Positions 49,743 to 59,158 are shown, counted from the first letter of the stretch. The stretch: 62,084 nucleotides of DNA from a virus (IMGVR_UViG_3300032267_000768:1-62084); one strand, 5' to 3'. Notes: generated by a model from the sequence alone, not told the origin. A program made the numbers and translations.

Positions 49743-50765
49743 ATGGCATTTTTTAAAAAAGCTGCTTGTTTCACTGATATACATTTTGGATTAAAAGGCA
49801 ACAGCCGAGTTCACAATGATGACGGAGAAGCATTCTGTCATTGGTTCATTGAGCAGGCCAAAGCACACGGTTGTGAAACCTGCATATTCCTAGGAGATTG
49901 GCATCATCACAGGAGTGCCACCAATGTCAGCACCATGAACTACACTGTCAGCAACATGGAGAGACTGGGCCGAGCGTTTGAAAAGGTCTATGTGATCATG
50001 GGCAATCACGATCTATTCTACAGAGACAAGAGAGAGATCAACAGCATGGAATACTGCAGGAACATTCCCAACATCGAGATCGTGAATGAGTGGTTACTGG
50101 CTGATGATGTAGCTATTATACCATGGATCGTGCATGACGAGTGGAGGAAGATACAGGATCTAAAACAGAGATATATTTTTGGACATTTTGAATTGCCTTA
50201 TTTTAAAATGAATGCCATGGTAGACATGCCAGATGTGGGCACTATCAAAGCAGAACACTTTGTGAATCAAGAGTATGTGTTCACAGGACACTTCCACAAG
50301 AGACAGATTAGAAACAATATACACTACATCGGCAATGCATTTCCTCACAACTATGCCGATGCTGGAGATGATGAGCGTGGCATGATGGTGTTGGAATATG
50401 GTGGACAGCCCAAATATATCAACTATCCCAACATGCCCAAGTATAGAAATGTAAAAATATCACAGTTACTATCTGATGCTGACAGCATATTGGCACCACG
50501 AATGTATGTGCGTGTGGGATTGGATATTAAAATTTCCTATGAGGAAGCCAACTTCATCAGAGAAACATTTATGGAAAAATATCAGTTGAGAGAATTACAA
50601 TTAATTCCAGAACAACTGGATCAAGCAGATCAGCCCATGGTCACTGTGGAAAAATTTGACTCGGTGGATCAGATTGTGATCAAACAGTTGGAAGCAGTGG
50701 ACTCACAGACCTATGATAAAAAAGTATTAATGGCAATTTACAATAATTTAGATGTTAACAATTAA
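49743..50765 (+). CDS. gp47: Recombination endonuclease subunit (Mre11/SbcD-like)
   Basis: DIHFG, LGDW, GNHD, GHFE, GHFH metallophosphoesterase motifs. Confidence 0.92.
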   Translation: MAFFKKAACFTDIHFGLKGNSRVHNDDGEAFCHWFIEQAKAHGCETCIFLGDWHHHRSATNVSTMNYTVSNMERLGRAFEKVYVIMGNHDLFYRDKREINSMEYCRNIPNIEIVNEWLLADDVAIIPWIVHDEWRKIQDLKQRYIFGHFELPYFKMNAMVDMPDVGTIKAEHFVNQEYVFTGHFHKRQIRNNIHYIGNAFPHNYADAGDDERGMMVLEYGGQPKYINYPNMPKYRNVKISQLLSDADSILAPRMYVRVGLDIKISYEEANFIRETFMEKYQLRELQLIPEQLDQADQPMVTVEKFDSVDQIVIKQLEAVDSQTYDKKVLMAIYNNLDVNN

Positions 50766-52545
50766 AGATCTCACAGTAAAAAACTTCATGAGCGTGGGCA
50801 ATCATACCCAAGCAGTAAACTTCGCTGGTAAAAATCTAGTGCTGGTTATCGGTGAGAACATGGATTTAGGAGGAGATGATGCTGGTGCTCGAAACGGCAC
50901 AGGCAAGACCACTATTATAAATGCCATCAGTTATGTGTTCTTTGGTGAAGCACTGACCCAGATACGAAGAGACAATCTAGTGAATAAAACCAATGCTAAA
51001 GACATGTTGGTCACTGTAAATTTTGAGAAGAACGGTGTACACTACAAAATTGAAAGAGGTAGAAAACCACAGGTACTGAAATTCTTTATCAATGAAGTGG
51101 AACAAAATTCCGGAGCAGATGGTACTGAAGATAACAATGAAGCACAGGGGGAGAATAAAGAAACACAAGAAGAGATTAATAAGTTAATTGGCATGACTCA
51201 TGCTATGTTTAAAAACATTATTGCTCTTAACACTTATACATTGCCATTCTTAGCAACCAAACAAGCCGAGCAGAGAGAAATTATAGAACAACTGTTGGGT
51301 ATAACTCTATTGAGTGAGAAAGCAGAACTGTTAAAAGAACAAATGCGAGTGGCTAAACTGGAGTTAGCAGAAGAAAAAATGCGATTAGATGCTATTCTAG
51401 TTAGTAATAAAAAAGTAGAAGAGTCTATTAAAACATTTGAATTAAGGAGTGCTGCGTGGCAGACGCAAAAGAATCAAGATATTGCAAAATTTGAATCCGC
51501 CATAGAAGAATTAGAACGAGTAGATATTAAAACAGAATTAGAATCCCATAAACGATTAGCCAAACATACAGATGATTCTAAAACGTTAAGAAACTTAGAA
51601 AAAGAGAAAAGTTATCATGAAGATTCATTAACCAAGGCTACTAAACAAAAAGAACAAACCGTAAAAGATTTAGAATATGCCGAAAAAGCCACGTGTCCTA
51701 CTTGTGAACAAGACTTACATGGAGAGAAACATGAACATCTTGTGGATGAACTTAAAAAAGATCTTGAGGAACAAACTCAATATGAACAAACATTATCTGC
51801 AAAATTAAAAGAAATACAAAGCAGCATAATATCTATTGGAGATTTGGGTTCTATACCAGACACATATTATGATTCTATCGATGAAGCATACAACCACAAA
51901 GGGTCTGTGGAAGATTTAAAACGACAATTGGAACAAACTAGCACAAAAGAAAATCCATACCAAGAACAGATCGATGAGTTAACAAAGAGTGCTGTACAAA
52001 AAGTAGATTATGTTAAAGCCAACGAAATGGAAGACTTATATAGACATCAAGAATTCTTGTATAAACTGTTGACTGCTAAGGATTCGTTTATAAGAACTAG
52101 GATTATAGAACAAAACTTAACGTATCTTAATCAAAGATTAGCATTCTATCTAACACAGGTTAAATTACCACACACAGTGGTATTCTTATCTGACTTGAAT
52201 GTAAGAATTGAAGAGCTAGGTCGAGAGTTAGACTTTGATAATTTAAGTCGAGGAGAAAGAAACAGATTAATTTTAAGTTTGAGCTGGGCATTCCGTGATG
52301 TGTGGGAAGGTCTTTACCAACAAATTAACCTATTATTCATTGACGAATTAATTGATGCAGGTATGGATATCTCTGGTGTAGAAAGCTCTATGGCAGTTTT
52401 AAAAGAGATGAGCCGAACCCAATCAAAAAACATATTCTTGATATCACACAAAGATGAGTTGATATCTAGAGTTAACTCTGTGTTAAAAGTGGTAAAAGAA
52501 AATGGTTTTACCAGTTATGCTAATGATGTTGACATTATAATTTAA
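50752..52545 (+). CDS. gp46: Recombination ATPase subunit (Rad50/SbcC-like)
   Basis: Walker A NGTGKTT, zinc hook CPTC, signature LSRGE, Walker B FIDE, ISHK. Confidence 0.93.
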   Translation: MLTIKDLTVKNFMSVGNHTQAVNFAGKNLVLVIGENMDLGGDDAGARNGTGKTTIINAISYVFFGEALTQIRRDNLVNKTNAKDMLVTVNFEKNGVHYKIERGRKPQVLKFFINEVEQNSGADGTEDNNEAQGENKETQEEINKLIGMTHAMFKNIIALNTYTLPFLATKQAEQREIIEQLLGITLLSEKAELLKEQMRVAKLELAEEKMRLDAILVSNKKVEESIKTFELRSAAWQTQKNQDIAKFESAIEELERVDIKTELESHKRLAKHTDDSKTLRNLEKEKSYHEDSLTKATKQKEQTVKDLEYAEKATCPTCEQDLHGEKHEHLVDELKKDLEEQTQYEQTLSAKLKEIQSSIISIGDLGSIPDTYYDSIDEAYNHKGSVEDLKRQLEQTSTKENPYQEQIDELTKSAVQKVDYVKANEMEDLYRHQEFLYKLLTAKDSFIRTRIIEQNLTYLNQRLAFYLTQVKLPHTVVFLSDLNVRIEELGRELDFDNLSRGERNRLILSLSWAFRDVWEGLYQQINLLFIDELIDAGMDISGVESSMAVLKEMSRTQSKNIFLISHKDELISRVNSVLKVVKENGFTSYANDVDIII

Positions 52546-52822: not shown

Positions 52823-52858
52823 AAAAAGCCTGTGCATGCAAGTGTGCAGGCTTTTTTT
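52823..52858 (+). terminator. Rho-independent terminator, possibly bidirectional
   Basis: AAAAA-GCCTGTGCAT-GCAA-GTGTGCAGGC-TTTTTTT between convergent genes. Confidence 0.85.
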
Positions 52859-53117
52859 ATGACCCAAACCATCGCCGTGCTATAGGCGTTGAATGTTTTA
52901 AACACCACATGGTCCATTCTCTATCAGTAAATTTGGCTCGTACCACTATTTTATCTGGTTCAAAAGCAATGTCACATAGATTCTTTAGATATAACTCTTG
53001 CACATGCGGGAAACGTGCTAACCAACCCTCAAACCATATCTGAGCTTGGAAAGCATCATCATACTTTCCAACGATTTTTAACTCTCCTATGACCCTAAGT
53101 GTTCCATGTCGCTTCAT
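52857..53117 (-). CDS. Hypothetical protein
   Basis: 86-aa ORF with ATGA overlap to the GIY-YIG gene. Confidence 0.65.
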   Translation of the reverse strand: MKRHGTLRVIGELKIVGKYDDAFQAQIWFEGWLARFPHVQELYLKNLCDIAFEPDKIVVRAKFTDREWTMWCLKHSTPIARRWFGS

Positions 53118-53545
53118 AGGTCTTTATCAATAATGAGTGACCCATGCACTCGCACACGTATGTGTCCATTGTAGTACTGGTCCGATTCTAAAACTTTCCT
53201 AGCAAACTGCTCTCGAGCTTCTACGTAGTTTAATTCTGCTTTGCTCTTGCAATAATAAAGTATCTCTCTACGAAATCGGTCTCGACCTAAAGATTCTATA
53301 TCTCTAGTTAACTGGTCACTGCTGCCATAGTAGTCCATCCAGTCACTTGCCACAGCGCCTCTTATTTTTTTGCGTATTTTTTTTCCGTTTTTTTGTGTGT
53401 GCATTTTATATCGCGTAGTTTTGAATCTAGATAATTTTTTTCCCACATACATGCGCCCATTCTCAGTGTTGGTAATAAGATACACAAATCCCACACACTC
53501 GTTTGGTAATTCTATTACCGGTTCATTTCTGTAAATCCACTGCAT
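53114..53545 (-). CDS. Minimal GIY-YIG endonuclease-like protein
   Basis: GFVYLITN..MYVGKK..YYGSS..REIL..E..YYN. Start revised to 53545 (TTAAATA 5 nt upstream). Confidence 0.8.
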   Translation of the reverse strand: MQWIYRNEPVIELPNECVGFVYLITNTENGRMYVGKKLSRFKTTRYKMHTQKNGKKIRKKIRGAVASDWMDYYGSSDQLTRDIESLGRDRFRREILYYCKSKAELNYVEAREQFARKVLESDQYYNGHIRVRVHGSLIIDKDL

Positions 53546-53599
53546 GTCAGTATTTAAACTCAAGAACCTGCCAATCATAATATACGCACATTATATACA

Positions 53600-54045
53600 T
53601 GTGAAAAAGGCACATTAAAAATAATCACAATTTCTATTAGGCTCTATAGCGTCTTTGGTAAAACAGTGAACTACTCCTATTCAGTTAGGCGGCGAATCAC
53701 TTGACGCAACAGGCAAAAATGACGGAGCTCTGGGAAACAGATCCAACTCCAGGTTCATATGATATTATCATACAAAGATCATGTGAATTCGCGTTGCAAT
53801 GAATGAGCTAACGGGTACAGCGCAACCGCCCGGCGACAGCAGCGATGTATGATGACTGCGAACTCAGCACATATGCAGAGTAGGTCTATTCGGCTAGCAA
53901 TAGCCGAATCATGACTGCTCATCTAGCACATAAGGCGCACGATGCTATCGCATCGCGCTTAACAATTGTTGTATCAAGATGTAAAAGGAAACGAGCGCAA
54001 GCGAAGTTTCAGATGTGCGTAGCACATCTTGTTAGGATTGCAACT
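53600..54045 (+). ncRNA. Putative large structured non-coding RNA (or structured ssDNA/origin element); boundaries approximate
   Basis: No ORF, GC-richer than flanks, at least 7 hairpins, GCAA tetraloops, G-U pairs favouring the + strand, potential 10-bp pseudoknot. Confidence 0.65.
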
Positions 54046-54046
54046 G

Positions 54047-54286
54047 TTAAAAGAATGGCTGTCCAGTTTTTTTAGTAACGTCTAGATTGTCTTTAACTAT
54101 ACGAGAAACAATATCGCGATCCGAAGGACTCAGTGCCAATGCTTCTTGATAGGTAACTCCACCTCGCATGTACCAACAGATTTTAAACAGCTCGTGCTTG
54201 ATGCTTTTACCTTCATTTTCAAGATCTTTTAGATATTTTATAAGGTCAGATTCCGAGAGCGATAATAGTTTTATACGAAAAAATTT
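54047..54286 (-). CDS. -1 frame extension of the gp26-like gene (gp51/GT-like); not in ORF track
   Basis: Open frame KFFRIKLLSLSESDLIKYLKDLENEGKSIKHELFKICWYMRGG...GQPFF* begins at the slippery A AAT TTT TTC. The first ATG is only at 54169. Confidence 0.7.
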   Translation of the reverse strand, partial: KFFRIKLLSLSESDLIKYLKDLENEGKSIKHELFKICWYMRGGVTYQEALALSPSDRDIVSRIVKDNLDVTKKTGQPFF

Positions 54287-55128
54287 GCGTTATCAAATGT
54301 GATCGGCACTTCGTAGGTTGCTGGAGCGCCGGCTTTAATCTGTTCTTCTGTGGCTTTGACTTTGACAGGTTTGATAGAACCCTGTTGACGAATATCACCC
54401 AATTTGTTTTCTAACTCTTTGATTGTTCTAGCGTCTGCGTTTTTGATAAAATCTAAAATGGCTGTTTTATCAGTCACTGTTTCTCCTGTGGGCAGTTGAA
54501 TACGTTCGATATTGTTGATCAACAAGCTCACGTTGAGGTCGCTCAGCACTCGGAAGCTCTCAGTGAAACGTTTGGTTTTTTCTTCGGCGCTGAGATTGCT
54601 CTGAGCCACTTGTGCGTAAATTCTCTGTTGTTCAAATGTTTTTAACTGTGCATCTGTGATCTGTTTGTAGGTCAGTGGAGCAATGTGCAGGGTCAGCCCA
54701 TCCTGCAGCACACAGCGGTCTGTGATTTTTTCCTGTCTAATAGTTTCCAACATCTGCGGTAGATTCACCACGTGTGTTTGTGTTTCATTGGTTCCTGGAA
54801 CCCCTGCTGTGATTTCCATGGTCTCTCCATAGCTGGCAATTCTAATAGCAATCAACACAGTATCAATGTCATGATTGACCAGTTGCCATGGATCCTGTAT
54901 GGTAGGAATACAACTTTTAATCACATCCACAGTGGCCTGTCCATTCATCATGCTGTCAGGGGTGCGGAAACTCAATTCATCCATGGCAGTCATGGGCAAC
55001 ACAGGGTGTTCTCCCGTAGTGGTCTTTTGCACCACCGACTCGGCATAGTATTTTTCACCAGAGGGCAAACGTATGCTGATCTGCGGCTGTCTATAATAGC
55101 GTTTTAACGGGTTTGTATTTTCTACCAT
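54271..55128 (-). CDS. gp26: Baseplate hub / tail assembly chaperone, T4 gp26-like
   Basis: YYRQP..IRLPSG, PMTAMDE, IKSCIP, DIDTVLIAIRIASYGE, terminal NFF. Confidence 0.75.
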   Translation of the reverse strand: MVENTNPLKRYYRQPQISIRLPSGEKYYAESVVQKTTTGEHPVLPMTAMDELSFRTPDSMMNGQATVDVIKSCIPTIQDPWQLVNHDIDTVLIAIRIASYGETMEITAGVPGTNETQTHVVNLPQMLETIRQEKITDRCVLQDGLTLHIAPLTYKQITDAQLKTFEQQRIYAQVAQSNLSAEEKTKRFTESFRVLSDLNVSLLINNIERIQLPTGETVTDKTAILDFIKNADARTIKELENKLGDIRQQGSIKPVKVKATEEQIKAGAPATYEVPITFDNANFFV

Positions 55129-57439: not shown

Positions 57440-59158
57440 ATGAGCTGGAAAAAATATTTTAAAGAACCCAATCTAAGTCCAATCAGTGGAGACAAAACTC
57501 CCAATTTCGCCAAAAGAAATTATTCATCTTATCTGCCTGATGTGTACACAGGACATCCAAATAGAATACAGAGATATTTTCAATATGATCAAATGGACAA
57601 CGACTCGGAGATCAATGCAGCTCTAGATATTCTTGCAGAATTTTGCACACAGAGCAACAACGAAAACGAAACACCGTTTGATTTAGTATTCAAAGACGAT
57701 ATCACAGAAACTGAAGTTAAGTTATTAAAAAAAGCACTGCAACAGTGGACTAAGTCTAACAGATTCGCTAGAAGAATATTCCGTATTTTTAGAAACTGTT
57801 TAAAATACGGTGATTGTTTCTTTGTGAGAGATACAGAAACTGACAAGTTGTTGTATATGGATCCTGCAAAAATTGATAGAATCATTGTAAATGAATCTGA
57901 TGGAAAGGTTCCTGAACAATATATCATAAGAGACATCAATCCTAATTTACAAAAATTATCTGCCACACAGATCACACCAAATCAATTGTATGGTGGTACT
58001 ACTGGTGGACCATATCAACAAAACTATATGGGCACAGGACAAGGCATGGGCACAAGTCCAACAGGAGCAGGAGCATCCGGCGGAAGATTCTACAGAACCA
58101 TGAATCAATATGCTATCAATGCTGAGCACGTGGTACACATGAGTCTATCAGATGGTATGGACAATCTATTTCCATTTGGTCAATCAGTGTTGGAACAAGT
58201 GTTCAAGGTTTACAAACAAAAAGAATTATTAGAAGATGCAATCATCATTTATCGAGTACAAAGAGCACCAGAACGAAGAGTATTCTATATCGATGTGGGT
58301 AACATGCCCACACACTTGGCTATGCAATTCGTTGAGCGAGTTAAAAACGAGATTAATCAGAGAAGAATTCCTAGTACATCAGGCGGAATGAGTTATATCG
58401 ACGCCACATACAATCCAATGAGTATCAATGAAGATTACTTCTTTCCACAAACAGCAGAGGGCAGAGGATCTAAAGTGGACACATTGCCAGGAGGAACTAA
58501 CCTAGGAGAGATTGACGATTTAAGATATTTCACTAACAAATTGTACAGAGGTTTAAGAATTCCAAGCTCATACTTGCCTACAGGTGCTGACGACGGAGCG
58601 CAACAATACAACGATGGTAGAGTGGGCACAGCATACATTCAAGAATTAAGATTTAACAAATATTGCGAAAGATTACAGAGTTTAATTGCTCCAGTGTTTG
58701 ATGAAGAGTTTAAATTATGGATCAAACACAAAGGTTACACCATTGACAACAGCACATTTGAAATTAAATTTAATCCGCCACAAAACTTTGCACAATACAG
58801 ACAAACAGAAATGGACCAAAGCCGAGTGGGTACATTTGTACAGGTGGCAGAGTTACCTTACATGAGCAAACGTTTTGCATTGAATAGATTTTTAGGATTA
58901 TCGGAAGAAGAAATGGCAAAAAATAGCACACTGTGGGCCGAAGAGAACGCAGTAGCACAAAAAAAACAAACCAAAACTACTCAATTAAGATCAGCAGGGA
59001 TCAGTCAAGCAGGAGTACAATCAGATTTAGATCAGTTTGAAAACCCAACTCCAGAAGAAGGAGCACCAACACCAGGCACACCAACACCAGGTACAACTAG
59101 CACACCGTCTACAGGCGGAACACCGGGTACCACTCCGGGTGGTGGAGCGACCGTCTAA
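57440..59158 (+). CDS. gp20: Portal protein, T4 gp20-like
   Basis: LLEDAIIIYRVQRAPERRVFYIDVGNMP, EDYFFP, TLPGG.NLGEIDD, LRIPSS. Confidence 0.95.
   Translation: MSWKKYFKEPNLSPISGDKTPNFAKRNYSSYLPDVYTGHPNRIQRYFQYDQMDNDSEINAALDILAEFCTQSNNENETPFDLVFKDDITETEVKLLKKALQQWTKSNRFARRIFRIFRNCLKYGDCFFVRDTETDKLLYMDPAKIDRIIVNESDGKVPEQYIIRDINPNLQKLSATQITPNQLYGGTTGGPYQQNYMGTGQGMGTSPTGAGASGGRFYRTMNQYAINAEHVVHMSLSDGMDNLFPFGQSVLEQVFKVYKQKELLEDAIIIYRVQRAPERRVFYIDVGNMPTHLAMQFVERVKNEINQRRIPSTSGGMSYIDATYNPMSINEDYFFPQTAEGRGSKVDTLPGGTNLGEIDDLRYFTNKLYRGLRIPSSYLPTGADDGAQQYNDGRVGTAYIQELRFNKYCERLQSLIAPVFDEEFKLWIKHKGYTIDNSTFEIKFNPPQNFAQYRQTEMDQSRVGTFVQVAELPYMSKRFALNRFLGLSEEEMAKNSTLWAEENAVAQKKQTKTTQLRSAGISQAGVQSDLDQFENPTPEEGAPTPGTPTPGTTSTPSTGGTPGTTPGGGATV

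Follow-up and report, generated by a model that had tools for sequence, protein, structure and literature searches.

A large conserved RNA family, probably stand-alone and with at least two predicted pseudoknots, in uncultivated aquatic T4-like phages

GOLLD and ROOL are phage-borne RNAs of several hundred nucleotides (nt) with many helices and pseudoknots; their biochemical function was unknown when they were found, and they typically lie beside tRNA genes. Recent cryo-electron microscopy is reported to show that RNAs of this type can act as RNA-only assemblies (10.1101/2024.12.08.627333). Further points of reference are the group I introns that carry a GIY-YIG nuclease gene, such as T4 td with I-TevI, and the T-box and riboswitch leaders. 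Mom of phage Mu, a DNA-modifying enzyme, is under tight translational control, and its regulatory RNA element is a short hairpin. Mom is also reported to be a phage GNAT-fold enzyme that uses charged tRNA (PMC13219725). Here we analyze a gap between genes in an IMG/VR virus record (IMGVR_UViG_3300032267_000768), whose 62,084 bases, with an estimated completeness of 18%, are called the window below. Judging from sequence comparison, the gap (53579–54046) on balance probably holds the gene for a large stand-alone structured RNA whose family we have not found described, and which would act in trans rather than as an mRNA leader alone.

The gap is non-coding. As the original prediction had claimed, it is free of any open reading frame (ORF) of at least 60 aa, and its GC content is 48–50%, compared with 35–40% in the surroundings. 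All six frames in the window copy hold TAA, TAG, and TGA, and therefore no single stop reassignment opens a frame. Among 53 homologues we found no shared ORF; the longest open stretches (36–111 aa) vary in strand and frame. The homologue lengths are spread over the three remainders modulo 3 (22/28/19), and column variability by position modulo 3 (0.169/0.177/0.172) has no 3-nt periodicity.

Homologues were gathered in several ways. Similarity to the gp26-type baseplate hub protein yielded 73 related viral loci, 53 of which contain the gap sequence, always on the strand opposite the hub gene. A 19-letter pattern from the best-conserved hairpin led to at least 120 further viral stretches. Of 192 viral loci, 143 matched an nhmmer profile of the first alignment, whereas among the matches listed, none of 120 prokaryote-genome stretches sharing the 19-nt pattern did. 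A covariance model of the 146-position core (R1, spanning helices P3–P7) scored 162.1 bits on the window (E = 2e-41) and matched all 100 viral pattern loci tested, 98 of them at full length, among the matches listed. These loci include about 38 distant variants at 26–47 bits; a set of distant variants that nhmmer had missed (L087, L092, L103, L110, L118, L132, L149, and about 30 more loci) scored 36–47 bits with R1. The 120 listed prokaryote matches were rejected as homologues and attributed to chance in GC-rich DNA, R1 covering just the 19–29-nt pattern there (E = 0.04–0.9). Altogether, 88 homologues were aligned, and the element occurs in more than 190 IMG/VR loci. Three alignments are used below: A3 (69 sequences), A4 (52 sequences), and A6 (86 distinct sequences, distant variants included). 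Searches by blastn with four queries (the window copy and those of L100, L130, and L089) gave no match in 50,697 deposited phage records, and R1 found none in the stretches of Methylophilales phage Melnitz or T4. The hub protein of the window is at most 32% identical to that of any deposited phage (94 matching records, all below 60%; the closest are PA5oct, Atu_ph07, and other jumbo myoviruses), and we therefore place the phage in an uncultivated group. Conservation of the RNA family extends over many uncultivated T4-like phages of lakes and marine waters.

The minimum free energy of the plus strand was −129.4 kcal/mol (z = −1.93; 2 of 100 shuffles were equally good) and that of the minus strand was −135.2 kcal/mol (z = −2.68). 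Because such single-sequence energies do not separate the strands, we turned to a comparative test and did not use the z-scores as evidence. RNAalifold predicted 48 pairs from 43 sequences, 23 with compensatory changes, and in a mutual-information scan of 69 sequences, helix pairs and a loop pseudoknot ranked at the top. The original prediction had called for a covariation test on related loci; a structure drawn up by hand, with 13 helices and 74 pairs and scored on A3, showed compensatory double changes in 40 of the 74 pairs and 96.9% canonical pair cells, as opposed to 33%–39% when the 3′ partners were slid by 1–3 columns. Double-change cells numbered 564 against 146 in shuffles, and none of 500 shuffles reached the observed values. 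In A6, the share of paired cells is 96.7%, and compensatory changes occur in 25 of 33 pairs. The assignment to the plus strand also held up: there is a U-G pair at 53816:53828 in 69/69 sequences and a G-U pair at 53752:53789 in 53/69, and since these invariant or common pairs would be A-C on the other strand, they fix the strand. The core DNA is 72%–79% identical where the gp26 protein is just 52%–56% identical, and the alignment contains approximately 90 invariant columns and approximately 20 invariant unpaired nucleotides, including ACAGC in the P6 loop.

The structured core spans 53649–54029 (plus strand, as are all RNA features below) and comprises about 13 helices, P0 to P11, in an RNA of roughly 380–430 nt. 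All of the complementary segments named in the original prediction were found where it had put them, and its helices P1, P3, P4, P6, P8, P10, and P11 are borne out by covariation on A3. P0 (53649–53653, GCGUC, with 53703–53707, GACGC), absent from the earlier list, encloses P1 and P2; it is 95.4% paired in A4, with three of five pairs compensatory, and this support sets the 5′ border of the fold at 53649 or earlier. P1 (AGTGA/TCACT, 53665–53669 with 53697–53701) has four of five pairs compensatory and contains P2 (53673–53693), a variable hairpin whose register differs between clades. P3 (GGAG/CTCC, 53724–53727 with 53747–53750) has an inner extension, as predicted, with two possible registers; the one first proposed, 53729–53732 with 53738–53741, has 13 G-A and 7 C-A cells and is weaker than 53731–53733 with 53743–53745, which shows better covariation. 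P4, the 12-bp stem of the prediction (53752–53762 with 53779–53789 and 53765–53766 with 53775–53776), has 13 pairs, of which 11 are compensatory, and is 97% paired. P5 (53807–53808 with 53842–53843) lies beside a tandem G-A/A-G at 53805–53806:53844–53845, P6 (CGGGT/GCCCG, 53812–53816 with 53828–53832) carries an invariant 11-nt loop, and P7 (53833–53834 with 53839–53840) is capped by a GNRA or UNCG tetraloop. P8, which has a GCAA (GNRA) cap (53883–53886 with 53913–53916 and 53887–53896 with 53901–53910), has 14 pairs, 96.4% paired and four compensatory; the GGTC/GACT part of its predicted extension stood, and the GAGTA/TGCTC part (53878–53881 with 53917–53920), 46% paired, was rejected. P10 (GAAAC...GTTTC, 53988–53992 with 54006–54010 and 53995–53996 with 54001–54002) has a GNRA loop, and P11 (AGATGTGC/GCACATCT, 54011–54017 with 54023–54029) follows it directly.

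The predicted CGATGC/GCATCG hairpin, P9 (53935–53958), is present in the window as a clade-specific peripheral element; in other clades it is replaced or absent, and it is missing altogether in about 10 of 69 sequences. In L100 its counterpart (GACGCAU...AUGCGUC) and a U-rich stretch give a terminator-like score inside the RNA (L100:7587–7602), and an equivalent hairpin occurs in many marine relatives. Two further candidate helices were discarded: 53703–53707 with 53791–53795, which is without compensatory change, is broken in four sequences, and is better explained at 53703–53707 by P0; and 53705–53708 with 53857–53860 or 53916–53919, which shows no compensation in variant clades.

By comparative criteria, the RNA contains at least two pseudoknots. 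In the first, PK1, which the original prediction had proposed, the 8-nt P4 loop (53767–53774) pairs with 53846–53853; its eight pairs are 99.1% paired in A3, six are compensatory, they rank among the top in mutual information, and the pairing is also seen by eye, in different letters, in the distant variants. The second, PK2, is new here and joins 53793–53797 to the P6 loop at 53822–53826. It is 93.3% paired in A6, and its pair 53796:53823 is G-C in 77 sequences, A-U in 4, U-A in 2, G-U in 1, and otherwise in 2. As PK2 is not part of the R1 model behind A6, this test is unbiased. The joiner that supplies its 5′ strand, GCGUUGY (53791–53797), is invariant, and its first four nucleotides can also pair with 53935–53938 (P_A; 99.3% paired, but without variation in the main family). 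P_A shares two nucleotides with PK2, and the two pairings may both stack or may alternate. The predicted long-range pairing GTTGCAAT/ATTGCAAC exists in the window clade (six sequences: C-G three times, U-A twice, U-G once) and does not extend to the family; across all clades its 5′ strand joins the P6 loop in PK2 instead. The 3′ tail AUUGCAAC (54037–54044) copies the P6-loop RCAAC and, in the window clade only, could compete for 53793–53797.

Two 18-nt direct repeats flank P8, one at 53854–53872 (GACUGC...CUC-AGCACA) and the other at 53913–53931 (GACUGC...UCU-AGCACA). Whatever the clade, both copies of a given RNA carry one and the same variable core. It reads AGCACA in the window and ACCACA in most sequences; other sequences have AGUACA or GCCACA, and distant variants have AGAUGAUGA or AGAUGAUAA. 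At four adjacent column pairs, the letters covary by being identical, with mutual information equal in strength to that of Watson-Crick pairs. A search in cis for a complementary partner of either copy found none. The repeats could reflect a shared target in trans, a single protein or RNase that recognizes this sequence at both places, or alternative pairing; such concerted evolution as identical letters is an unusual signal that points to a testable recognition mechanism.

No family in the sources searched accounts for the element. The 4,227 models of Rfam 15, which include RNase P, tmRNA, group I and II introns, GOLLD, ROOL, HEARO, OLE, raiA, T-box, and riboswitches, gave no match at gathering score in the whole window or in 11 loci with distant variants, and no match at E ≤ 10 on either strand of 53400–54300. 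ARAGORN found no tRNA or tmRNA gene in the window, and none of 33 related loci contains a tRNA gene. The earlier failure to recognize RNase P, tmRNA, tRNA, or a group I intron core agrees with the Rfam and ARAGORN results, and the novelty of the RNA stands against Rfam. In the literature and catalogues searched, we found no description of the family; one source gives 8,495 candidate viral RNAs with a mean length of 67 nt, which may include fragments of this RNA (PMC10690425). With strong covariation, no coding signal, no Rfam match, and no description in the literature searched, the prediction of an undescribed large phage noncoding RNA is upheld.

In most relatives, the RNA lies next to a gene that may bear on its role. 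We classified the flanks of 111 distinct element sequences, 86 of which could be assessed for an ORF of 256 aa (in L046, 5862–6635, minus strand) that is not in the window. This ORF was adjacent downstream of the RNA on the same strand in 54 loci, divergent upstream in 3, otherwise placed in 2, and absent from 27, the window clade included; in the other 25 the flank was too short to judge. In most loci, it starts 1–20 nt past the 3′ end of the RNA profile match, about 25–35 nt past P11, and we found no terminator between the two. In a reverse test on the best 80 of 240 relatives of the ORF, 76 of 78 assessable loci had the RNA upstream on the same strand, directly adjacent in 70 and farther in 6, where 0.7–2.1 kb are inserted. 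The ORF had no tblastn match in the 50,697 deposited phage records, and the protein has no Pfam or PHROG match of its own. One of nine family members (29% identical) passes the Pfam ATE_C model (31.9 bits; cut-off 25), NCBIfam arginyltransferase matches to the family are far below cut-off, and a profile of the family found nothing among the Protein Data Bank (PDB) sequences. The top PDB matches of an AlphaFold model in Foldseek were human ATE1 (E = 6.7e-6), the C-domain of MprF/LysPGS, FemX, and aminoacyl-tRNA-dependent peptide synthases. By its modeled fold, the protein looks like an aminoacyl-tRNA-dependent transferase of the ATE/FemABX/MprF GNAT kind.

We favor a stand-alone RNA because 27 of 86 assessable loci, the window among them, retain it with its P10 and P11 while lacking the transferase-like gene, and because that gene is divergent upstream in 3 loci and separated from the RNA by 0.7–2.1 kb in 6/78. 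The link to the transferase-like gene is drawn from the downstream adjacency in 54/86 loci and the upstream RNA in 76/78 loci of the reverse test. On this model, transcription would run left to right from approximately 53600–53650 to at least 54029, and the transcript would form a compact core in which P0 closes the 5′ domain, the P4 loop reaches 53846–53853, GCGUUGY of the joiner is bound by the invariant loop of P6, and P8 stands between the two co-evolving repeats; P10 and P11 would form the conserved 3′ domain. The RNA may be a component of a ribonucleoprotein (RNP), or it may be catalytic or bind a ligand, and in most phages of the group, its likeliest partner would be the adjacent aminoacyl-tRNA-dependent-transferase-like protein.

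Thirteen public lake or freshwater runs labeled as RNA contain part of the stretch, and our expression data are the assembled contigs of four of them (X1, X3, X7, and X9). Contigs of X3, X7, and X9 cover 53660–53929 (X3 just 53682–53870), one X9 metatranscriptome contig begins at 53660, and X1 contigs start at 53907. In X7, contig depth was 50–110 over the RNA versus 2–19 on the flanks. Gaps in the contig coverage are not counted as a finding. The RNA is present in lake metatranscriptome libraries, which is weak evidence of its expression. Upstream of P0 lies a putative 5′ leader (53600–53648), in which two AGGC(A) boxes about 30 nt apart (53608–53614 and 53639–53642) are kept in relatives; a third, AGGCAAA, is at 53711. 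The boxes could serve as a site for a protein, belong to a leader structure, or act in a promoter. We rejected the idea that AGGCAMA is a promoter motif used generally by the phage, with 32 sites against 19 expected, most of them inside coding sequence. Farther upstream, relatives share, as judged by eye, a TTGACY box and a TATA-rich one, approximately 15 nt apart in one type, and a scan of the window scored TTTAAA-17-CATAAT at 53553–53581 as 9/12.

Several observations weigh against our interpretation. Two of the 78 loci have the 256-aa ORF without the RNA, eight of nine members of the transferase-like family miss ATE_C, and the AlphaFold model behind the structural matches is just moderate (predicted local distance difference test score 70.6, template modeling scores 0.3–0.43). 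The transferase-like gene was not found in the window or in four contigs of the window clade, which are just 7%–18% complete, and conservation of the neighborhood among related phages may be plain synteny. The metatranscriptome contigs carry no information on strand, ends, or true level, and some may stem from DNA. The promoter definition is weak: a strict sigma-70 scan found nothing in L100, and TTGAC-N16-18-TATAAACA occurs in just 1/395 loci, which, together with the ~15-nt spacing, led us to reject a clean sigma-70 promoter. No terminator was found after P11.

The alternative that survives best, which we nevertheless consider unlikely, is that the RNA is a cis-acting leader of the riboswitch or attenuator kind for the downstream transferase-like gene, the window copy being left over or re-used after that gene was lost. 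The close spacing of the ORF, on the same strand with no terminator between, would fit a leader, as would the terminator-like P9 hairpin and U-rich tail of L100. The P9 5′ strand ACGC could pair with GCGU of the joiner (P_A) in competition with PK2, which would make a possible switch, and Mom is a precedent for phage tRNA-dependent GNAT enzymes (PMC13219725). However, 27/86 assessable loci keep the whole RNA without the gene, and of the approximately 10/69 sequences without P9, several still keep the gene. The three loci with the gene on the other side and strand, and the six with an insert, also speak against a leader, and, to our knowledge, riboswitch aptamers are smaller and have fewer invariant positions.

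A second alternative, improbable in our judgment, is a ribozyme in which the double-pseudoknot core and invariant loop nucleotides form an active site and the repeats are processing or substrate sites. Two pseudoknots and a tandem G-A motif surround the invariant unpaired nucleotides, among them ACAGC in the P6 loop, and the repeat cores co-vary as identical sequences (AGCACA, ACCACA, AGUACA, GCCACA, AGAUGAUGA); but no ribozyme family in Rfam 15 matches, and neither joints nor shared contig ends were found at the repeats in the contigs of the four runs. A bolder proposal, that the RNA is either the working partner of a phage aminoacyl-tRNA-dependent transferase (carrier, guide, or scaffold) or a new natural ribozyme class, is speculative, and we rate it slightly below the leader. 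In the partner version, the RNA could serve as a dedicated carrier of aminoacyl groups that works without tRNA, as a guide, or as a scaffold directing the enzyme to its target; in either version, the two repeats would be paired recognition sites for a target in trans or for processing.

The other neighbor of the RNA in the window is a stand-alone gene for a GIY-YIG nuclease-domain protein of 154 aa (53114–53578, minus strand, divergent; phrog_447), with a SegE-type domain (PF19835, 111.6 bits versus a cut-off of 25; E = 3.6e-32). In the 111 flanks, a GIY-YIG gene is directly upstream of the RNA and divergent in 71 loci, upstream on the same strand in 7, elsewhere in the flank in 14, and absent from 8, and 11 flanks are too short to judge; it thus adjoins the RNA in 78/100 assessable loci and is within the upstream flank in 92/100. 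The location between GIY-YIG and gp26 in the original prediction holds for the window clade; in most relatives, about 1.6 kb, including the transferase-like gene, separates the RNA from gp26. Homologues of the GIY-YIG protein occur in 568 phage records, 339 of them of Synechococcus phages, and many are annotated “NAD synthetase,” apparently a propagated misannotation. The closest cultured relative is in Methylophilales phage Melnitz (48% identity), where the gene follows nrdA/nrdB and R1 found no such RNA beside it. That position is the same as that of denA, but orthology to T4 DenA was rejected (BLASTP E = 3.9). Given a widespread GIY-YIG gene and a Melnitz copy without the RNA, we attribute its adjacency mainly to synteny. 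In marine relatives, the GIY-YIG gene is followed by one for a radical SAM protein (L046:7525–8397, plus strand), and some contigs have insertions of 0.7–2.7 kb between the RNA and the GIY-YIG gene or the 256-aa ORF (L024, L164, L088, L025, L017, L048, L055, L336, L343, L349, L375, L376, and L387).

It is very improbable that the element acts as DNA, as a GIY-YIG homing target, recombination site, or origin in which the repeats and hairpins function in DNA. Free-standing T4 Seg endonucleases adjoin conserved genes that they target, and a GIY-YIG gene in 92/100 upstream flanks, together with direct repeats around a hairpin, would suit such an element. The strand-specific G-U pairs and the compensatory changes, however, keep pairing and not sequence, the GIY-YIG family is widely conserved and its Melnitz copy lacks the RNA, and between loci the protein keeps about 60% identity, compared with about 53% for gp26, which does not look like a selfish gene of sporadic occurrence. 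A decayed or recoded protein gene, to which the open stretches of 36–111 aa in some homologues might point, can be dismissed on their shifting strand and frame, the three stops in all six frames, and the absence of codon periodicity.

The window also contains T4-type genes for gp47/gp46-like nuclease subunits (49743–52545, plus strand) and the gp20 portal (57440–59158, plus strand). Convergent with the RNA is a small ORF (54047–54268, minus strand) that follows the gene for the gp26-type hub (54271–55128, minus strand); it is intact and conserved (73 aa in relatives), with only 40 aa from the first ATG, so that it probably either begins at a start codon outside the list or is coupled to gp26. 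An 86-aa ORF (52857–53117, minus strand) overlaps the GIY-YIG stop codon by 4 nt; it also occurs in the window-clade relatives L002 and L007 and has no family match.

Few large RNAs combine so many conserved helices with two covarying pseudoknots, and those known are mostly ribozymes, cores of RNPs, or, according to recent work, assemblies made of RNA only. The present RNA is better conserved than the structural proteins around it and is widespread in uncultivated aquatic phages. Its neighbor would belong to a kind of phage enzyme that has recently been reported, in the case of Mu Mom, to act in phage-host conflict. The family offers RNA biologists a well-aligned target and phage biologists a new conserved noncoding gene.

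Compared with the described systems, the RNA resembles GOLLD and ROOL in being phage-borne and several hundred nucleotides long with many helices and pseudoknots, but neither covariance model matches it, even at E ≤ 10. It is without tRNA genes in the window or in the 33 related loci, it belongs to other hosts and habitats (aquatic T4-like phages), and it has neighbors of its own, the GIY-YIG and transferase-like genes. With group I introns of the T4 td/I-TevI type it shares a size of 300–450 nt, a pseudoknotted core, GNRA loops, and an adjacent GIY-YIG gene. Unlike them, it matches no Rfam group I model and splits no host gene: the window flanks are complete genes on the opposite strand, the downstream gene of relatives is a complete 256-aa ORF, and the nuclease gene lies beyond the RNA in divergent orientation. 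Its pseudoknots, by inspection, join a hairpin loop to a distant strand and a joiner to a loop, which is not the P3-P7 arrangement. Like T-box and riboswitch leaders, it is a structured RNA directly upstream of an aminoacyl-tRNA-related gene, with possible competing pairings (P_A, PK2, and P9), but it matches none of their models, is much larger, and is kept without the gene in 27/86 loci, and we did not identify a specifier or NCCA-pairing motif in it. Finally, the predicted fold of the 256-aa neighbor puts it in the same broad kind of enzyme as Mu Mom; whereas Mom is accompanied by a short hairpin, here an RNA of 400 nt lies beside the transferase-like gene.

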